From: Dictyostelium discoideum
Lineage: Eukaryota
Reading direction: 5' to 3'
Assembly (NCBI GenBank): GCA_000004695.1
Contig: CM000154.2
Coordinates: forward strand, 2,688,001-2,752,000
DNA length: 64,000 nt
The position numbers and the translations under genes were made by a program. This document shows, piece by piece, positions 39,149 through 60,151 of this stretch. The notes beneath the pieces are model-generated. The model was not told the origin of the DNA. It was given only the letters and a program-made list of their open reading frames with translations, and made no database searches. Positions within the stretch are counted from its first letter, which is position 1. Each line of letters opens with the position of its first letter.

Positions 39149-39389
39149 ATTTAAATTAAAGTTAATAAAATAAAATAAAAAATAAATAATAAAATGGTAA
39201 ATTAAAAAAAAAAAACCTAAATCTATTTTAATTCTATTTTTAGTTATTTATTTTTTAATCTGCATTTTTCTCAGCTTAATTATTTCTTAAATCTCTAAAA
39301 AATAAAATTATAAAAAACTTAATAAAAATTAAAAAAACCTAAGAATATAATCTATTTTATCCTGTAAAAAAACTTTGTTTTCAACAAAT

Positions 39390-39462
39390 GCCCAGATAGC
39401 TCAGTCGGTAGAGCGCAAGGCTTTTAACCTTGTGGTCGGGGGTTCGAGCCCCCCTTTGGGCG
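39390..39462 (+). tRNA. tRNA-Lys (anticodon UUU)
   Basis: The 73-nt sequence GCCCAGATAGCTCAGTCGGTAGAGCGCAAGGCTTTTAACCTTGTGGTCGGGGGTTCGAGCCCCCCTTTGGGCG folds as a cloverleaf with a 7-bp acceptor stem including one G-U pair. It has an A box TAGCTCAGTCGG, anticodon loop CTTTTAA, B box GGTTCGAGCC and discriminator G. No CCA is encoded. A T6 Pol III terminator follows at 39465-39470. Confidence 0.9.
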
Positions 39463-39707
39463 AATTTTTTAGATGGAAGAATTTGATCGTAGGCTCGATT
39501 CCTAATCTAACCAATTAATATTATTTAAATTGTTTCTTTTGTGAATGAATCAAAGGAAAACTGTTAAATGTAATAACCATCTTTGGTTTATAATCTACAG
39601 AGAGGAATATTCATTAAAAGGCAATATTCCATTCTTTTGCTCTAGAATTAACATTATCGCACCTTCTAAATATGGTAACTTCTATTATAAAAAATATCAA
39701 AAAATCC

Positions 39708-39752: not shown

Positions 39753-40187
39753 TCTGATTAATCAATATTAAAAAGGCCTTGGAGTTTATTCCATATTAAA
39801 TTCAATGGTTTACATTTTTTTTGTCCTTCTTTTTATCTTTTATAAAAAAAAAAATCCTGTAGAAGGAGATCCATCTTTATTTTTAATAATTGCTTTTTAG
39901 AATTTGTATTACATTGTTTAATATTAATAAGTTTTAATAATCATAATATAAATAATAGTAATAATAATATTAATGATTAACAATTAAACAATAACAATTA
40001 AAAATAATAATTTATTTAGTTTTAGAGTTTTCGTTCAAAACTTATAAGTTGAAAATAACGAAAACTGAAAAAAATGAAAAAAATAATTCACGTTTTACAG
40101 CATTCATAATATTGTGTGTTCATTTATTTATTAAGATCAATACATCTAAAATTCCGAACTTCGGATTGTAGGAAATTATTCAAAAAG

Positions 40188-40259
40188 CTCCCTGTCCGGG
40201 AATTGAACCCGGGCCTTTCGCGTGACAGGCGAAAATCCTCACCACTAGACCAACAAGGA
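40188..40259 (-). tRNA. tRNA-Asp (anticodon GUC)
   Basis: The reverse complement TCCTTGTTGGTCTAGTGGTGAGGATTTTCGCCTGTCACGCGAAAGGCCCGGGTTCAATTCCCGGACAGGGAG is 72 nt. It has a canonical Asp-type D loop AGTGGTGA, anticodon loop CTGTCAC, T arm CCGGGTTCAATTCCCGG and a paired acceptor stem. A T5 run follows immediately on the minus strand (plus 40178-40185 region). Confidence 0.9.
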
Positions 40260-51033: not shown

Positions 51034-51645
51034 CTAATCGTCAATTGACAAATCAATCAATTGTTCAAATGTTAAATGTTTAAGATCTTCAAATGTTTGC
51101 ACATCGACAATATCAAAACGAGCTCCTTCCTTCTTTAAATTATCATCTAATTTCTTTAAAAATTTAGAAGCTGATCTATCATTACCAATTTGAATGAATG
51201 AAATTGAAAGATCTTCATCTCTATTAAGTTTTTTAGTTGTTGATATAATTAATTTTTTAACATCGGATTCAGAGTTTGGAATACCGTCAGTAATAACCAA
51301 AATAGTTTCTGGTTTATTACCTTTTACAAAGTGATCATTAATAGCTTGGTTTAAAACACCATATAAATCTGTAGTACCACTTGGTTTTTCTCTTGCAAAT
51401 AATCCCATTACTGTTTGTGCATCTCTAATATTTTCATATTTTGGATGTCTAGAACTTGGACTTCCAAAGAAATAAATATTAATACCATCTGGATCTGCTC
51501 CACATGCAAATGGTGCAATTTTTGCTACTGCTGCTTCACATTGTTTCCATAAACCACCACTCATACCTAGGATTATATAAATAAATAAATAAAAAGACAA
51601 GGTTTAATATGTAATTAGTTACATTTAAATAAGTTATAATAGATC

Positions 51646-51682
<37 letters not shown>

Positions 51683-52343
51683 TACTACCACTCTTATCGA
51701 TAATAAGTGTATAATCTCTTGCATAACGATGTTTAACATGATCAAAGAATTTAACTAATGATACACCTGGCATAGTTGGTGCTGGTTTACCATATCCCAT
51801 TGGTTGTGGTTGACCGTATTGACCTGCTTGTGGTGGTGCGCCATATGGTGGTTGACCGTATTGACCTGCTTGTGGTGGTGCACCATAAGGTGGTTGGCCA
51901 TATTGGCCTGCTTGTGGTGGTGCACCATAAGGTGGTTGACCGTATGGTGGTTGACCATATTGACCTGCTTTTATTTTGTATTATATATATATATGATTAG
52001 ATTATTGATTATCTCTACCTAAAAACTATTTAATAAATGATAATTACCTGCTTGTGGTGGTTGGCCATATGGTGGTTGACCATATTGACCTGCTTGTGGT
52101 TTATATTGTTGTGGTGGTGGTTGACCATATTGACCTGCTTGTGGTGGTGGTTGGCCATATTGTCCTGCTTGTGGTGGTGGTGCTCCATATTGACCTGGTT
52201 GTGGTGCTCCATATTGACCTGGTTGTGGTGCTCCATATTGACCTGGTTGTGGTGCTCCATATTGTCCAGGTTGTGGTGGGCCTAAAGGTTGTTGAGAATA
52301 TTGTGGTGGGTAACCTTGTTGTGGTGGGTATCTAATTAATTAT

Positions 52344-52374
<31 letters not shown>

Positions 52375-52533
52375 TAATAAATAAATATGATTTCGATAGA
52401 TATTTATAATTGAATCACTCCAGATATAAATATGAGTTATTGAACTTTTTTTTTTTTTTTTTTTTTTTTTTTGCCACATATTGCAAATTTTTTTTTCTAT
52501 ACATTATAAATTTTTTTTTCTATACATTTATTA

Positions 52534-52564
<31 letters not shown>

Positions 52565-52700
52565 GGTCACAACGAATAATAAAAGTTGTAAATACAAACC
52601 CTTGTTGTGGTGCTCCATATTGGCCGGGTTGAGGAGGACCTAAAGGAGGTTGAGAATTTTGAGGATATCCTTTTGGTATGTTATATTCGCCTGGTTTCAT
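51034..52700 (-). CDS. Pro/Gln/Gly/Tyr-repeat protein with a C-terminal von Willebrand factor A (VWA) domain, about 398 aa; exons 52700..52600, 52331..52048, 51964..51686, 51566..51034
   Basis: Exon 1 encodes [34 protein letters not shown] and ends at a GTTTGT donor. Exons 2-3 encode about 14 tandem PQ(A/P)GQYG(A/Q)P(P) units. Exon 3 ends ..[15 protein letters not shown] at a GTATGT donor (51685). The intron contains (TTA)n. An AG acceptor at 51568-67 gives ..DKSGS|[51 protein letters not shown].., which are the MIDAS DxSxS and TDG motifs of a VWA domain. Confidence 0.6.
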
Positions 52701-52899: not shown

Positions 52900-53185
52900 C
52901 GCAAAATGGTGCCATATTAATTAAATTTCATTTTTTCAGACCATTTTTGCTTGGAATTTTAAAAAAAATTTTTTTTTTTGTTGGCCAAAAAAGACATTGT
53001 GATCAAATGTGTCATTTGATTTATTTTTAGCATTAATTTTTTAAAAAATTTTGAAAAGGATCATTAATTTTTTTTTTTTTTTTTTTTTGACGAAGGGTTT
53101 GTGTATGAAATGTTTTTTTATTTATTTTTAAAATTTTTTTTAAAATCGGGAAATTTATTAGAAAAAAAAAAAAAATAAAAGAGTA

Positions 53186-53244
53186 TCGGCCACATAAATA
53201 CCAAATTAATTCGATTCAATTAGTTGAATTTAAAGTTATTGGCC
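53186..53244 (+). repeat. 59-bp dispersed, partly palindromic repeat (copy 1); copy 2 at 58201..58259
   Basis: 53186 TCGGCCACATAAATACCAAATTAATTCGATTCAATTAGTTGAATTTAAAGTTATTGGCC versus 58201 TCGGCCACATAAATATCAAATTAATTCGATTCGATTAGTTGAATTTAAAGTGATTGGCC differ at 3 of 59 positions. The GGCC termini and internal AATTAATTCGATTC / GATTAGTTGAATT arms are inverted-repeat-like. The two copies bracket the two membrane-protein genes. Confidence 0.75.
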
Positions 53245-53294
53245 CTTCTTCTGAATTAAACATTATTTGTGAAAAAACTGATACAATTGGACCA

Positions 53295-55346
53295 TTGGTG
53301 ACTTCACTATTGGCATATAACCCGGAAACACTATCGTATGGTAAATCTGTTGAAGTTGGGTTTGAAATACATTTTAAAGACGATTTAAATGGTATTGCTG
53401 ATATTAATTTTACTATAATCTCAGACAAAGATAAAAATGGTTTTGATTTTAATTGTAAGCCACCAGAAATAAAAAATACTCATACATGTTCTCCAAGATG
53501 GAATGTAACCATACCACAGACATTTTACATATCCCAAATGTCCACAATAGATAGCAAGGGTTATTCAACTGAATATCCTAATATTAATAAAGTAAACCCA
53601 ATGATGGAAATTGTAGAAACTGATTATAATAAACTGATAGTTACAAGTAGTGGTGAAATGGACACAGATATCCCAACGTTGGTTCATTTCATTTCTAATA
53701 TATCATATATAAATAATCAATCAGATAGATCGATTTTAGTTAACTTTACTATTGAAGATACCAATAGTGGTGTTTCAATTAAATATCAACCAACAATTTA
53801 TACAATCCCAGATACTTTGAATATTCTTTCATTTCCATGCAAACACGAAGAGGGTTTGATCAACAACACCAAATACCGCCAGGTAAATTTTTACTGCGAG
53901 TTAATGTTACCATATTTATATGGCTATCCAAACGGTTTCTTATTTCAAATTCATGGTGTTTATGATAATCATTTTAATTCTGCAGGTTTTTCTTATGAAA
54001 ATAGCCAAAGATTTGGTTTTTTCATAAATGTTACAGTTGGTGATGATATACCATTCATTGAATCATTTAAAACTGATGAATCATATATAACCTCAAAAGG
54101 TTTTAAATTTGGAATTTCACCTAGTGTAATATATAACTCCAACTTCACACAAGAACTATTAATATTTTCTCCTTCCCCTTTTTTAAATAACAGTTTTATT
54201 CAATTTAAACCAAATTTAACCCAAAACATTATTGGAGAAACTATTTTGATCTACATTAATACCTCGGAAGGAAAATCCAACACTATTTCAATTGAATTGC
54301 CATGTAAAGGAGAGCCATTATGTGGTGGTCAGTCTCAAGGAATTTGCACCCTAATGGGGTGTAGATGTAAACCTGAATATACCGGGACTGATTGCTCATC
54401 AAATATTATTATTATAAATCCAAATATTAACTTAACCGTTTGGTTGTCCAATGGTTTGGTTAAGTTAATATTTGGATTTATAATAATAATATTTGGACAA
54501 TTACCATACACTCACCATCAATCTTTGATTTCTGTTCATTCTTTAAGAGAAGTTGATTTCAATGGTAAATTGGTTAATGAATATATATTTAATAATTGGA
54601 GTTATTATGGTTCAAATAATAGTTTCTCATATATAACAGATGTCAATAATAAAAATGTACCTGATAATAATGTAAAGGTTGAGGTTTTAATTAGACATGA
54701 TAAAGATGGCGGTTTAGTAGAATTTGCCGGCAAAAATGTTCCAATTTTGCTGGGAGCTGTTAAGTATTATTTTTCTCTTTCTAAGTATATATTTAAATCT
54801 CAGTTAAATACATTACATTTGGTAATGCATGCTGCTGTAGAAACTTCACAAAAAGAAAATGTGTGCATGGGTAGTGAGTTTGGAATTGATGGTTTGGAAC
54901 AAGAATCTCAATACTTTAAAGTTCAAATCAATGGTTTTAGTCTATATGGACAATTTATGACAAGAGCAATAATAGATGGTAAATTTATATCAATCAGAAA
55001 CCTACAGGTTAATAGTTCAGATTTTAAAAAATCTTTAAACACCAACACACATTCTCAAATTTATTTTGCAATTGAAATTCCTAATTATGAAATAAGGGCT
55101 GAATTAGATCCAAACTTTAGTGTCCTCTTGGAAAATACCAATAAACCAAATTCTCAAAATTTTGTTTGTGTTGGTGGTAAATCAGGAGGTTTGACATCTC
55201 TGCAAATGATTGGAATTATAATATCTTGTGTGGGAATGTTTGTGGTTGTTATTGTAATAATTTGTTATATTTCATATAAAAAATCAACTTTTCTTCGTGT
55301 TAAAGCAAGATTTGTATCCTTGAAATTAAAAAGTCTCAGAGACTAA
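53295..55346 (+). CDS. Type I membrane glycoprotein with one EGF-like module and a C-terminal TM anchor; 5' end unresolved (no in-frame ATG or signal-peptide exon found)
   Basis: Long ORF with many N-glycosylation sequons. EGF-like CKGEPLCGGQSQGICTLMGCRCKPEYTGTDC. TM segment LQMIGIIISCVGMFVVVIVIICYI, then a short basic tail. The reading frame stays open upstream to a TGA at 53106 without an ATG and runs through the 59-bp repeat at 53186-53244. Confidence 0.5.
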   Translation: MVTSLLAYNPETLSYGKSVEVGFEIHFKDDLNGIADINFTIISDKDKNGFDFNCKPPEIKNTHTCSPRWNVTIPQTFYISQMSTIDSKGYSTEYPNINKVNPMMEIVETDYNKLIVTSSGEMDTDIPTLVHFISNISYINNQSDRSILVNFTIEDTNSGVSIKYQPTIYTIPDTLNILSFPCKHEEGLINNTKYRQVNFYCELMLPYLYGYPNGFLFQIHGVYDNHFNSAGFSYENSQRFGFFINVTVGDDIPFIESFKTDESYITSKGFKFGISPSVIYNSNFTQELLIFSPSPFLNNSFIQFKPNLTQNIIGETILIYINTSEGKSNTISIELPCKGEPLCGGQSQGICTLMGCRCKPEYTGTDCSSNIIIINPNINLTVWLSNGLVKLIFGFIIIIFGQLPYTHHQSLISVHSLREVDFNGKLVNEYIFNNWSYYGSNNSFSYITDVNNKNVPDNNVKVEVLIRHDKDGGLVEFAGKNVPILLGAVKYYFSLSKYIFKSQLNTLHLVMHAAVETSQKENVCMGSEFGIDGLEQESQYFKVQINGFSLYGQFMTRAIIDGKFISIRNLQVNSSDFKKSLNTNTHSQIYFAIEIPNYEIRAELDPNFSVLLENTNKPNSQNFVCVGGKSGGLTSLQMIGIIISCVGMFVVVIVIICYISYKKSTFLRVKARFVSLKLKSLRD

Positions 55347-55898
55347 TATTTCACTAGAAAAAAATTATTAAATAAATCATTTTATGAGAAATTTTATAAT
55401 CGAAATCTCTTTTATTTCGAAAAATGAAATTATTTGATAGAAATTGCATATTTTTTTTAAAGTAAAATTTGAACACAAATTTATTTATTCTTTCATTTCT
55501 TAAAATAATTTTTTCTAATAATTCTTTAATTTTAAAGAAATGATAGAATTATTTGTCCCATACCAAAATTATATATGATAAAATTAATAAAAACAAAAAA
55601 AGAGAAAGTTTTGAAAATGAAATTTTATTAAATGTTTACATTGGACCTATCAGTGAATAATTGAATTAATTCTAAACAAAAAAAAAGTTTTTTTTGAAAA
55701 AGATTGAGTTATCCCGGAGAAGTTCATTTTTTAAACAAAAACAAATTATTTCAAAAAAAGTTTTTTTTTTTTTAAAAAATTCCAAAATCTTTTAGCCAAA
55801 GTTTTTAAAATCTTTTTTTTTTTTTTTTTTTTTTCAAAATTTCAATTTAAAAAAAATAAAGGAAAAAACACACCAAAATTAAATAAGTAAGAATAAAA

Positions 55899-58002
55899 AT
55901 GAAATATTTATTAGTATATTTACACATATTACTATTTTGTTTATTAAAGATCAATAGCCAAAAGTATTGCACTTATAGTGGTGTTGGAGAAGATTATAAT
56001 ATCAAATTTGATGTCTTACAAACAAAGTATGTAATTTTTTTTTTTTTTCTTTCTCTTCTTTTTTTTTTTTTTTTTTTTTAAAAAAAAAACCTAATTATTT
56101 TTTCTTAAACGTTCAAACAGTGGTGGTATTGGTTTTCTATACTCATATTTAAGTGTTATTTTTACAACTTGTAATTATACTATTCCTTGTGGTAGTAATA
56201 GTAATAATGTATTGTGTGGATCATATCATTCAACTGTTCCACGCAAGTATCTTTCATTGGGATTTGTTAATGGCAGTACACATAGTTATAGCAAAGACGG
56301 ACTAATGATAACATATATATCACAGGATACAACAAATGATAATGATTGCAAAAGATATACAACAAATGTGATTTTTCAATGTAGACCAGATGGTGATGTA
56401 TCCGATTCATTAGATGTTGGCATCGACAATATACTTATTGATTCATGTATTGTTGAATTCACACTCTATTTACGTACAGTGTGTCAAACATGTCCAAACT
56501 GTTTAAAAACACATCAAACATCATGTAATGTGAAAAGTGGTTGGTGTACTTGTGATGGTAATACAAAAGGTTTAAATTGTGATCAATTAAATGCAAATAT
56601 ATCATCGGTATTAACACCAACAATTAGTGGTGGTGATGTTATAATGTCTGGTGATTTTTCAAATATTTATAATATTAGCTCAAGTATTACAATTTCAATT
56701 GGTACTTCAATTTGTAATAGTGTTATTTTCTCAAGTAATAAATCACAAATCAAATGTACGATAGGTGCAGGTGAAGGTGATCAACAAATTAAATTATCAG
56801 ATGGAAATGGTGCAACATTAATATATGATGGATTTTATTATAGAGCTCCTTGTTCAGTCGAATGTTCACCATTTGGTAAATGTAATGATCACGTTGGTAA
56901 TTGTATTTGTAATGATGTTGCAATTGGTACAGATTGTAAAACTTTAAATTTACAATTAGATTCAGTAACACCAACATTTGTAACTGGTGGTCAAGTTTAT
57001 TTAAATGGTAATTTCCTAAATGTCAAAGATCTTAGTCTAACTATTAAAATCGGTGATATAGAATGTTCAGATGTTAAATTCAACGATACTAATTTCAAAG
57101 TTTTGCAATGTATAATTCGAAAAGGTGAAGGTATTAAAGATATTATAATATCATCAGGTTTGCTATCATTTTCAAAAGCAAAAGCATTCGAATATCAATA
57201 CTACAAATGTCCACTCAATTGTTCAACACCAAATGGTACTTGTGATAATAATACTGGTAATTGTACATGCCATAATGAACATTTTGGTAATTCTTGTGAA
57301 TTTACTCGATGTCCACTCGATTGTTCGACACCAAATGGTACTTGTGATAATAATACTGGTAATTGTACATGCCATAATGAACATTTTGGTAATGGTTGTG
57401 AATTCACTCAATGCCCACTCTATTGTTCAACACCAAATGGTACTTGTGATATTAATAGTGGTATTTGTACATGTGATAATGAACATATTGGTAATGGTTG
57501 CGAAATTAAATTTATTGAATGTAAACATAAATGTTCAACCAAACATGGAATATGTGATAATGATAGTGGTAATTGTAAATGTGATACTCAAACAAAAGGA
57601 TTAACGTGTGAAGAATCAAGATTATTAATTGAATCATTAGACTCAATCAATTCAAAAGGTGGTACAATAAATATAATTGGTTATTTTGGAAATACAACAT
57701 CATTATTAACAATTAAAATTGGTGAATCACAATGTAAAAATATCAAAGTATTCAATGAAACAACATTAAAATGTGATATTGGTGAAGGTAAAGGTATTCA
57801 TAATATTACAATCATTGATGATGACCTTTCGTTCACAGCAATCAATAAGTTCCAATATCTCGATGAAAAAACAAAAATCTCAAAAATATCGAGAGGTGCA
57901 ATTGCTGGTATTGTTGTTGGTTGTGTTGTTGCTGTTTCATTAATTGGTTCTATTGCTTTTTATTATCATCACAAAAATAAAAAGGTTAATCTTTTCTTCT
58001 AA
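55899..58002 (+). CDS. Type I membrane protein with a signal peptide, MRH-like (mannose-6-phosphate receptor homology) domain, TIG/IPT-like domains, EGF-like repeats and a TM segment; exons 55899..56026 and 56121..58002
   Basis: Exon 1 encodes MKYLLVYLHILLFCLLKINSQ.. with a GTATGT donor at 56027 and an AG at 56119-20 (phase 2, junction Asn). The N-terminal region KYCTYSG..YNIKFDVL..CNYTIPCGS..LCGSY..DGLMITYIS..DCKRYTTNVIFQCRPDG..SCIVEFTLYLRTVC fits the MRH Cys/aromatic pattern. IPT/TIG-like segments follow (ISGGDVIMSGDF..ISIGTSICNSVIFSSNKSQIKCTIGAGEGDQQIKL; VTGGQVYLNGNF..IKIGDIECSDVKF..VLQCIIRKGEGIKDI; INIIGYFGN..IKIGESQCKNIKVFNETTLKCDIGEGKGIHNI). There are five tandem CxxxCSTPNGTCDNNTGNCTCHNEHFGNxCEF EGF-like units. 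The TM segment is IAGIVVGCVVAVSLIGSIAFYY. Confidence 0.7.
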
Positions 58003-58200
58003 AAACTAAAATAAAATTTAACCATTATGGTTTTTTATTACAATAATTAAAATTTCCCAATTATTTTTGATATTTTTCTTTTTTTTTTTTTCTTCCAACT
58101 ATGATTTATTTTATATAATTTTGTGTATTTTTGTGTGCTTTATTTATCTATACTAAATTCATATTAAAAATTAATAAATTTAAATTGTTATCAATTTTTT

Positions 58201-58259
58201 TCGGCCACATAAATATCAAATTAATTCGATTCGATTAGTTGAATTTAAAGTGATTGGCC
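58201..58259 (+). repeat. 59-bp dispersed repeat (copy 2, same orientation as copy 1)
   Basis: See copy 1. It lies about 200 bp downstream of the 55899..58002 gene stop. Confidence 0.75.
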
Positions 58260-58762
58260 AAGCTTTTTTTTTTTTTTTTTTTTTAAATTATTTTTTTAAA
58301 TTATTTTTTATTTTTTTTTTTTTTTTCATTTTTATTTTTTTCATTTTTTTTTTTATTCTGGCACATCACCTAACAAAAACAAAAGGTGAAATTTGTTTAT
58401 CGTGCAATAACTCTGTTTTGAAAAAATAAAAATAAAAATAAAAATAAAAATAAAAATAAAAATAAAAATAAAAATAAAAAGGATTTAAAAATTAAAAAAA
58501 AAAAAATAAAAAATAAATAAAAAATAAAAATAAAAATAAAAATAAAAAGGATTTAAAAATTAAAAAAAAAAAAAATAAAAAAAAAATAAAAAATAAAAAT
58601 AAAAATCAAAAAAATTAAAATTGAGGTGTTTTTTTGAGAAAATACCAACAATTCAATACCAATGTCTAAGACAGCCATAAATATTTTTTCCCTATTCCAC
58701 CAACTATAAAAAAAAACAAATAAAATAGTTTTATTAGTAAAATTTAAATTTTACATTTTTAG

Positions 58763-59556
58763 ATGTTATCAGAGTTTTTTAATAATATTACCTCATTTTT
58801 TGTTAATATTTTTTCATTATTTGAGGGAAAAAGAAATATAAGAATATTAATGATAGGTTTAGATGGTGCAGGTAAAAATCAATTCAATAGTTTTGATATT
58901 AGAAAAAATAATAATTTAATAAATAATAACAATTCATTTTTTAATTAAAAATTATTTTTTTTAGGCAAATCAACACTTTTATATAAATTAAAATTTGGTG
59001 ATGTTATTAGAACAATCCCAACAATTGGTTTTAATGTTGAAATAAGTATGTATCAATTTATAGGAATAAGATTGTATTAAATAATATATAATATATTATT
59101 TAAATATACATATAAAACAACCAATTTTATTAACATTAATTTACATTTTTTTTTTTTTTTCTATTTCCAAAAGTTGAATATAAAAATTTATCAATGAATG
59201 TATGGGATATAGGAGGTCAAAATAATATTAGAGCGTTATGGCGTCAATATGATCAAAGAACAGATGTATTCATCTTTGTAGTTGATTCTACTGACCGTGA
59301 AAGATTTGATGAAGTTAAACAAGAAATCAAAAATATAATTGAACAAAACAAAAATGAATCAAGTAATGCTTCATTATTAATCTTTGCAAACAAACAAGAT
59401 ATGCTCAATCCAATTACACCTGCAGAATTAGTTAATTCATTGGATTTAAATTCATTAACAAATAAAAAATGGCATGTTCAACCTTGTAGTGCAGTAAGAG
59501 GAGATGGTATTTACGAAGGTTTTGACTGGATAGTATCCAACTCTAGTGGAAAGTGA
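58763..59556 (+). CDS. Arf/Arl-family small GTPase (190 aa); exons 58763..58871, 58965..59045, 59174..59556
   Basis: The spliced protein is [37 protein letters not shown]|[26 protein letters not shown]|[90 protein letters not shown]1 GLDGAGKST, the switch I T in TIPTIG, G3 WDIGGQ and G4 NKQD are all present. GTAAAA and GTATGT donors and AG acceptors restore an Arf-collinear sequence. There is no Gly2, so it is probably not myristoylated and is more Arl-like. Confidence 0.8.
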
Positions 59557-60151
59557 TTGCATTTATAAAGGTTTTGATTGAAGGGGTAGTATTTAACAAT
59601 AGATTATTAAATTAATTTCATTATCAAATAAAAAAATAAATATAAAACTATATAAAATGAATTGGGGGCAAAAGTAAAACAAAAACACATCTCTCCTAGA
59701 TAGATTGATGATGTTTTTTAATTCTCAATTTAATTTTAATAATTTTAAAATTTTTTATTTTTCATTAATATTAAGGGTTTGGGAGAGGTAGCACTCTTTT
59801 TATAAACTCTGAAATTGTGCAATACAGAGCGAATGCTATTTTAGATGTAATAAAGGCATGCCGATATCATAACATCTAAACCTCGAATAAAAAATTATTT
59901 TAAATTCGAATGCTTTCACTTAGAAAGCAAGAACGATTTTAAACGTTCTAGAACAGATACTACACTTGATTAAAGCTATTACGCTTCAAGAAGAATTGTG
60001 ACTTATGCTTTATTAAGGCAAAAAGTGATTTGATTTGTTTTTTTATTCTTCCTTTATATTATTATTAATAAAATTATAATTTTTGGGAAAAATATTTTTA
60101 ATTCTTTTGAATTAATTACAACAATTAAAAAAACATTGTTGAAATTCCATT

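Follow-up and report, generated by a model that had tools for sequence, protein, structure and literature searches.

The products of microhomology-mediated break-induced replication (MMBIR), of fork stalling and template switching (FoSTeS) and of the "templated insertion cycles" of cancer arise by microhomology-mediated template switching. Chromosome breaks in yeast and mammals are known to capture mitochondrial DNA, cDNA and genomic fragments, which are usually short and carry no long flanking duplication, and target-primed reverse transcription typically gives 5' truncation, microhomology at the 5' junction and target-site duplications of variable length. Tandem duplications have been shown experimentally to arise from fill-in of complementary 3' overhangs and subsequent non-homologous end joining (NHEJ), with Pol alpha-primase/CST involved (PMC8355091), and natural rice insertions with such duplications on their flanks, termed "patch-mediated", have been described (Vaughn and Bennetzen 2014, as cited in PMC7407515). 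Here, we describe a locus on chromosome 5 of Dictyostelium discoideum AX4, lying in a stretch of 64,000 nucleotides (assembly GCA_000004695.1, contig CM000154.2, positions 2,688,001 to 2,752,000; hereafter the window), where a ComC-family membrane-protein gene (gene 1) and a TIG/EGF-repeat membrane-protein gene (gene 2) are bracketed by two direct repeats of 59 bp, the 59-mers (copy 1 at 53186-53244 and copy 2 at 58201-58259, both on the + strand).

The two 59-mers are very likely a target-site duplication that stems from one DNA-level duplicative insertion. This confidence applies to the target-site duplication as a whole and to neither of the two routes considered below in particular. The donor, the acceptor and empty sites with a single 59-mer were all found, the junctions were resolved to the base, and the inserted copy has kept an intron. 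Because the empty sites of two related genomes hold one 59-mer in the same context and the donor holds none, the 59-mer represents the duplicated target. At the empty site it is a native, single-copy intergenic stretch, and the repeat is the result of the insertion, not its agent. The event, a dispersed segmental duplication accompanied by a long target-site duplication, falls into a known class of accidents in repair or replication.

The 59-mers are identical at 56 of 59 positions and have the same orientation, as an earlier note made from the sequence alone had reported (a same-orientation pair with three mismatches). Copy 1 forms the 5' edge of a long open reading frame (ORF), and copy 2 starts 198 nt past the stop codon of gene 2 (58002), in good agreement with the roughly 200 bp of that note. 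A search of the 64-kb window for a 58-nt core with up to three mismatches returned two sites only (53187-53244 and 58202-58259, both on the + strand), and 100 dinucleotide-preserving shuffles contained no match; one T common to both left edges lengthens the core from 58 to 59 bp. The copies differ at 53201/58216 (C/T), 53218/58233 (A/G) and 53237/58252 (T/G), and their likeness ends sharply at both edges. A longer repeat unit of about 157 bp was considered and rejected, the 98 nt before each copy giving a local score of 27 that was matched by 18-71% of AT-rich control pairs from the window. The 59-mer was not found at the donor locus or at other sites in about 200 kb of Dictyostelium DNA examined.

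The acceptor is a spacer of about 1 kb, a divergent promoter region, between a vWA-like PQ-rich gene (51034-52700, - strand, with its promoter side toward the insertion) and arrF, which encodes ADP-ribosylation factor F (58763-59556, + strand, three exons). The insert splits this spacer into about 490 bp on the side of the vWA-like gene and about 500 bp on the side of arrF. With arrF as the anchor, orthologous loci were fetched from D. firmibasis (L004) and from the isolates ACTFIW (L007) and ACTFIR (L008), the latter two labelled D. discoideum. Each of these loci has arrF immediately after the vWA-like gene; the spacer measures about 1 kb and contains neither gene 1 nor gene 2. The locus of the window in the assembly of isolate ACTFIT (L002, at about 2.81 Mb) has both 59-mers with the identical three differences and the same structure. 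The roughly 5-kb unit that the earlier note saw delimited by the repeats did move as a block (4956 bp), and the comparison with relatives that it proposed revealed a structural polymorphism, the unit being present in AX4 and ACTFIT and absent in ACTFIW, ACTFIR and D. firmibasis.

In a multiple alignment, a single homologue of the 59-mer lies between the same flanks at L007 9490-9539 and L008 9503-9555 (left flank ...AAAAGAGTAT, right flank ...CAGCTTTTTT). The left flank of the window runs to 53242 and the right flank begins at 58201/58203, and the two fall onto overlapping coordinates of these loci. The homologues contain indels of 4-9 bp, and the left flank is conserved at least as well as they are. 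The top matches to gene 2 in ACTFIR and ACTFIW share only 64-70% identity with it, and that to gene 1 in ACTFIW only 53%, so neither gene has a young copy in these genomes.

At the three sites where the copies differ, the single 59-mer of the empty sites reads T,A,G, copy 1 reads C,A,T and copy 2 reads T,G,G. Polarised on L007 and L008, the derived changes are T>C at 53201 and G>T at 53237 in copy 1 and A>G at 58233 in copy 2. The last of these, at least, arose at or soon after the event, because it is found both in L002 and in L003, an early-split second copy of the acceptor region in ACTFIT. The T,A,G state is what would be expected of an ancestor of both copies, and a single crossover between C,A,T and T,G,G could not yield it. 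This bears on the alternative that the insert is ancestral and was removed from the empty genomes when the direct 59-mers recombined with each other, a deletion that would leave one repeat and look the same as an unoccupied site. Such a loss is very improbable: it would have to account for three empty genomes, the outgroup D. firmibasis included, a repeat of 59 bp is very short for homologous recombination, and the insert differs from its donor by 0.48%, more than ten times less than AX4 differs from the empty-site genomes.

The donor was read in the independent D. discoideum assembly of isolate ACTFIT (GCA_054883475.1), at locus L001 (CM142511.1, about 542.7-547.8 kb). At loci of this type the ComC-family gene is full-length, with 1178-1222 aa (1178 aa in L001), and is followed by the TIG/EGF gene. 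L001 has no 59-mer, and the donor was left intact by the event. Window positions 53239-58102 are collinear with L001 11525-16644 at 98.6-99.8% identity, with 21 substitutions in 4385 ungapped positions, from which the divergence of 0.48% derives. In ACTFIT, donor and acceptor lie 2.26 Mb apart on the same chromosome and in the same orientation.

Both junctions of the insert could be placed. On the left, a 6-bp microhomology, TTGGCC (53239-53244, + strand), is common to the end of the 59-mer and to L001 11525-11530, and the donor-derived segment of 4858 bp follows (53245-58102, + strand, from the locus represented by L001 11531-16644). Its right edge at 58102 lies 100 nt beyond the stop of gene 2 and is succeeded by a filler, X, of 98 bp and 12% G+C that ends in T7 (58103-58200, + strand) and then by copy 2; any microhomology where X meets copy 2 is no longer than 1 nt. 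In total, 4956 bp were inserted (4858 copied and 98 of filler), and the insert begins CTTCT and ends ATTTTTTT. The part of copy 1 that derives from the target measures 52-59 bp, its first T and final 6 nt being of ambiguous origin.

An ancestral donor flank was tried as an origin for X and found to be unsupported, as X is missing downstream of the L001 breakpoint and from the donor-region locus of ACTFIR (L009), whose 3' flanks are like that of L001 and unlike X. As a separate observation, the right breakpoint of the donor (L001 16644) falls within about 20 bp of the left edge of a segment of about 3.1 kb (L001 16645-19770). This segment is held by the ACTFIT donor locus and is missing from the ACTFIR region (L009 10400-10455), and it contains a degenerate inverted piece resembling the 5' end of gene 2.

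Since the intron of gene 2 and the 552-bp spacer between the genes were kept and the insert has no poly(A) at its 3' end, the insert was copied from DNA and not from RNA. A retrocopy, made from a read-through transcript by reverse transcription of the TRE/L1 type with 5' truncation and a long target-site duplication, would share with this locus the truncated 5' end and the microhomology there, and non-LTR (long terminal repeat) elements do occur near in related loci. Yet a retrocopy would be hard to reconcile with the retained 94-nt intron (56027-56120), with a spacer that bears a promoter, and with 98 nt of AT-rich filler ending in T7 where an A-tract would be expected (none at 58103-58200), and we regard it as barely credible. 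A processed retrocopy was rejected on the same intron and the same missing A-tract.

Gene 1 (53245-55346, + strand; DDB_G0289433 in AX4) is a 5'-truncated copy of a ComC-family membrane-protein gene with the domains DUF7035, DUF7034, EGF-like DUF7949 and ComC_SSD (ComC supersandwich) and a transmembrane segment. Its homologues have 1100-1227 aa, and the ORF of the window matches them only from "GPSSELN", directly after the 59-mer; the part of the ORF upstream of this point, which runs across the 59-mer and a poly-Lys tract, is without a counterpart and contains no ATG. What was copied is the 3' 58% or so of the gene, with about 490 N-terminal codons including the signal peptide missing and no start codon of its own, and it is by chance that the ORF continues upstream across the 59-mer. 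Coding sequence of the family was considered as an identity for the 59-mer, as the ORF crosses it and two of its three differences are synonymous in this frame. It was rejected because the corresponding part of full-length homologues is unrelated (PIQYILNPVDIDSSTFYTYLG against PHKYQINSIQLVEFKVIG) and homology at the DNA level begins only at TTGGCC. Gene 1 is possibly a pseudogene, or else its expression may begin at another start.

Public models of gene 1 (DDB_G0289433, 665 aa; ACTFIT_001029, 708 aa) begin with a first exon of 4 nt, "ATGT" (53007-53010), which is spliced across 209 nt to an AG within the 59-mer (53218-53219). This start exon is probably an annotation artefact.

Gene 2 (55899-58002, + strand; DDB_G0289399, P0134, 669 aa) is complete and consists of exon 1 (55899-56026), the 94-nt intron and exon 2 (56121-58002); the spliced sequence is 100% identical to DDB_G0289399. 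The 552-bp region upstream of it (55347-55898), promoter included, came along. The earlier description of two bracketed genes therefore holds for gene 2 and has to be amended for gene 1, of which only the 3' part is present. Gene 2 contains a tandem array of 102-bp EGF units (57207-57620) whose copy number differs among copies and strains, and the encoded proteins have 669 aa in AX4, 771 aa in L002, 736 aa in L003 and 769 aa at the donor.

Gene 1 also carries a fold-back (quasi-palindrome) mutation in which 60 bp (54438-54497, + strand, next to 54400-54437) stand in place of 12 bp of donor sequence. Positions 54453-54495 are the exact reverse complement of a neighbouring stretch of the donor (L001 12686-12728), and the change is in frame, the hydrophobic VWLSNGLVKLIFGFIIIIFG substituting for KPDV. 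It is seen in the AX4 window and in L002 and is not in L003 or the donor, and it is later than the insertion.

The form of the 59-mer had suggested to the earlier note a partly palindromic element, comparable to a miniature inverted-repeat transposable element (MITE) or a footprint. Its ends read CGGCC...TTGGCC, so that GGCC-type termini do exist, although the terminal inverted match GGCCA/TGGCC spans only 5 nt. An inner hairpin, TTCAA-TTAG-TTGAA, is also present, but only in copy 1, the A>G of copy 2 disrupting the stem, and the predicted single-strand DNA folds are modest (-7.7 kcal/mol, z -2.8, and -7.1 kcal/mol, z -1.9). "Footprint" or recombination cassette came close to what was found, which is an insertion scar, with the correction that the repeat was not the agent of the insertion.

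The MITE itself did not hold up. It is highly unlikely that the 59-mer acted as a mobile or dispersed element of small size, either MITE-like or the end of a transposon, and captured or mobilised the genes in between, even with the GGCCA...TGGCC ends, the small inner palindrome and the sharp edges in its favour. Genomes that lack the insert have the 59-mer as a single copy in the same context, the 64-kb window has only two copies, and the other loci examined had none except at the same site. Moreover, the copies are direct rather than inverted, the terminal inverted repeat (TIR) has 5 nt, no short flanking duplication was found around either of the two copies, and the donor is without the 59-mer.

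Named families of mobile elements fared no better. For a MITE or another DNA transposon, a TIR of about 10 bp or more and dispersed copies with duplications of their own would be looked for, and the locus has a TIR of 5 nt, with no such copies in the window or in about 200 kb of related loci. LTR retrotransposons have repeats of more than 100 bp bounded by TG...CA and enclose gag/pol, while here the repeats are of 59 bp, bounded by TCGG...GGCC, and the interior consists of two host genes. Capture by a Helitron would leave 5'-TC...CTRR-3' ends, a 3' hairpin, insertion between A and T and no duplication, which is unlike CTTCT...ATTTTTTT within a 59-bp duplication. A 26-nt core of the 59-mer had no match in the JGI metagenomes or the GTDB genomes, collections without Dictyostelium and hence little informative in this respect.

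The other suggestion of the earlier note, a shared regulatory or insulator element, found nothing in its support. If the 59-mer were a functional promoter or insulator module or a small RNA gene with two copies under selection, its G+C content of 31% compared with 5-17% in the flanks, the T-run after copy 2 and the fact that it is recognisable in isolates about 10% diverged could be understood. We consider this very doubtful: no Rfam match was obtained at the gathering threshold or at E<=1 within 53050-53350 and 58050-58400, the sequence is not recognisable in D. firmibasis, its homologues in L007 and L008 have the indels mentioned above next to a left flank no worse conserved, the inner hairpin is broken in copy 2, and the second copy is already explained by the insertion. 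A known structured RNA gene was likewise rejected, the only Rfam hits of the window being U2 and two tRNAs, away from the repeats. No function of the 59-mer is demonstrated.

Only the enzymology of the insertion is inferred. Template switching of the MMBIR or templated-insertion type, with a return to the sister chromatid, is slightly preferred over fill-in of a staggered break, because of the microhomology at the left junction and the chained, two-part insert. In such a course, the ancestor of AX4 and ACTFIT would have had a single 59-mer in the spacer between the vWA-like gene and arrF, where a break or a collapsed replication fork occurred. The 3' end, ...TTGGCC, would have annealed to the identical hexamer midway along a ComC-family gene that lies 2.26 Mb away, and from this primer 4858 bp would have been copied, that is, the 3' 58% of the gene, the spacer and the whole next gene with its intron. 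A further 98 nt would have been added, from another template or without a template, and synthesis or joining would then have restarted at the acceptor, 59 bp back from where copying had departed. The outcome would be a 59-mer on both sides of a 4956-bp insert.

The locus resembles templated insertions in its intact donor, in the kilobase copy at a distant site, in the junction microhomology, in the chaining of more than one template (the donor and X) and in the short host duplication at re-entry. It differs from them in being a germline, fixed event in a haploid amoeba and in having 6 bp of microhomology at one junction and at most 1 nt at the last.

The same event could also have proceeded via two nicks about 59 nt apart, perhaps at the hairpin-prone 59-mer, with the complementary overhangs filled in and the copy of the donor, together with the filler, captured by end joining; we hold this to be possible, at clearly less than an even chance. 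Like the fill-in duplications at staggered breaks (PMC8355091 and the rice insertions cited in PMC7407515), which serve as its precedents, the locus has a native direct duplication of tens of bp with sharp edges, and in those cases too extra DNA sometimes lies between the copies. The 59-mer folds somewhat above its shuffles, the junction of X and copy 2 has no more than 1 nt of microhomology, and the confinement of excess substitutions to the 59-mers mildly fits long-lived overhangs or low-fidelity fill-in. Unlike those duplications, however, 4956 bp of ectopic DNA separate the copies here, and the 6-bp microhomology at the 3' tip of copy 1 resembles priming on the donor and not capture of a free fragment. 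Complementary overhangs of 59 nt would be expected to re-anneal, a free fragment of 4.9 kb that ends inside a gene needs a separate explanation, and the hairpin is weak and not kept in both copies.

A more specific proposal would have the 59-bp site, prone to form a hairpin, cut with a stagger of about 59 nt by a nuclease of the host or of a transposon, so that Dictyostelium pastes kilobase gene cassettes between loci in this way. This seems highly unlikely. If true, it would constitute an undescribed long-duplication route for the birth-and-death evolution of the ComC/TIG-EGF surface-gene families, and the excess mutations in both copies would mark the single-stranded overhangs.

Transposon target-site duplications are similar in that direct repeats of the host flank the insert and the site is empty in relatives. 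Unlike transposons and MITEs, the insert has no TIRs, LTRs, transposase, reverse transcriptase or poly(A); one of its ends falls within a gene and the other in a 3' flank, the repeat is not the part that moved, and 59 bp is far above the fixed duplications of 2-15 bp of known transposon families. Capture at chromosome breaks has in common with this locus the non-homologous insertion of distant DNA at a repaired break, often with filler nucleotides, and is set apart from it by the near 5-kb copy with a complete, probably functional gene and by the long flanking duplication. A search for literature on DDB_G0289433 and on DDB_G0287665, the gene of the donor locus in AX4, or on segmental duplication with target-site duplication in Dictyostelium, returned nothing relevant.

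Several points weigh against a target-site duplication. The divergence between the repeats, 3 of 59 positions, exceeds the 0.28 differences expected at 0.48% (Poisson P ~0.003), and remains high when the greatest local divergence between insert and donor, 0.93%, is taken (P ~0.02). This excess is limited to the 59-mers, the last 503 bp of the insert having no substitution. Possible reasons for it are gene conversion between insert and donor, mutagenic synthesis or single-strand exposure, or a repeat older than the insert; L003, a mosaic of donor-like and acceptor-like states, touches on the first of these. No source of X was found among the sequences compared, which were the donor, the empty-site loci, the window and the other loci fetched. 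In D. firmibasis, blocks of the flanks are conserved and no 59-mer is recognisable, which confines what is known of its age to the discoideum complex, and the copy count covers only the 64-kb window and about 200 kb of related loci. Lastly, the divergence of ACTFIW and ACTFIR from AX4 at the locus amounts to 7-20% when indels are counted, and the empty-site isolates may be cryptic species instead of conspecific strains. Cryptic species near D. discoideum have been mentioned (bioRxiv 10.1101/2025.10.22.684067), and the isolates of L007 and L008 may be among them.

As a target-site duplication, the locus provides a natural case of a dispersed gene duplicate in a haploid protist that arose without a transposon, resolved to the base pair, with donor, acceptor, empty site and polarised mutations at hand. 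It reveals neither a new element nor a new mechanism, being an ordinary type of event that is unusually well resolved. The event gave rise to a second TIG/EGF surface-protein gene that is complete and brought a promoter of its own (DDB_G0289399), and also to the truncated ComC-family gene DDB_G0289433, whose annotated start is probably artificial and whose model needs caution. The locus can further serve as a presence/absence marker by which divergent "D. discoideum" isolates can be told from the AX4/ACTFIT lineage.

The second copy of the acceptor region in ACTFIT (L003/L006, CM142511.1, 2.62-2.65 Mb; the first being L002/L005, 2.80-2.82 Mb) matches the window collinearly from position 54194 at least as far as 64000 and has a sharp left junction within gene 1, upstream of which lie a tRNA-Gly gene and a non-LTR retrotransposon. 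It carries copy 2 of the 59-mer only. At some 10 positions with a derived base in AX4 and L002 it retains the donor-like base, which points to an old copy or to gene conversion. In total length, the chromosome of ACTFIT exceeds the AX4 record by 163 kb.

Among the neighbours of the insert, the vWA-like gene has a tandem array of 24-30-bp units (52030-52330 and 52600-52664, - strand) that encodes its PQ/GQY-rich N-terminal region and differs in length among the strains compared. Just past arrF, at 59784-59996 (- strand), is a gene for the U2 spliceosomal RNA (RF00004, 92.5 bits). Dictyostelium tRNA genes are landing sites of TRE retrotransposons, and two are found elsewhere in the window, tRNA-Lys(UUU) at 39389-39463 (+ strand) and tRNA-Asp(GUC) at 40187-40259 (- strand), with 0.7 kb between them.

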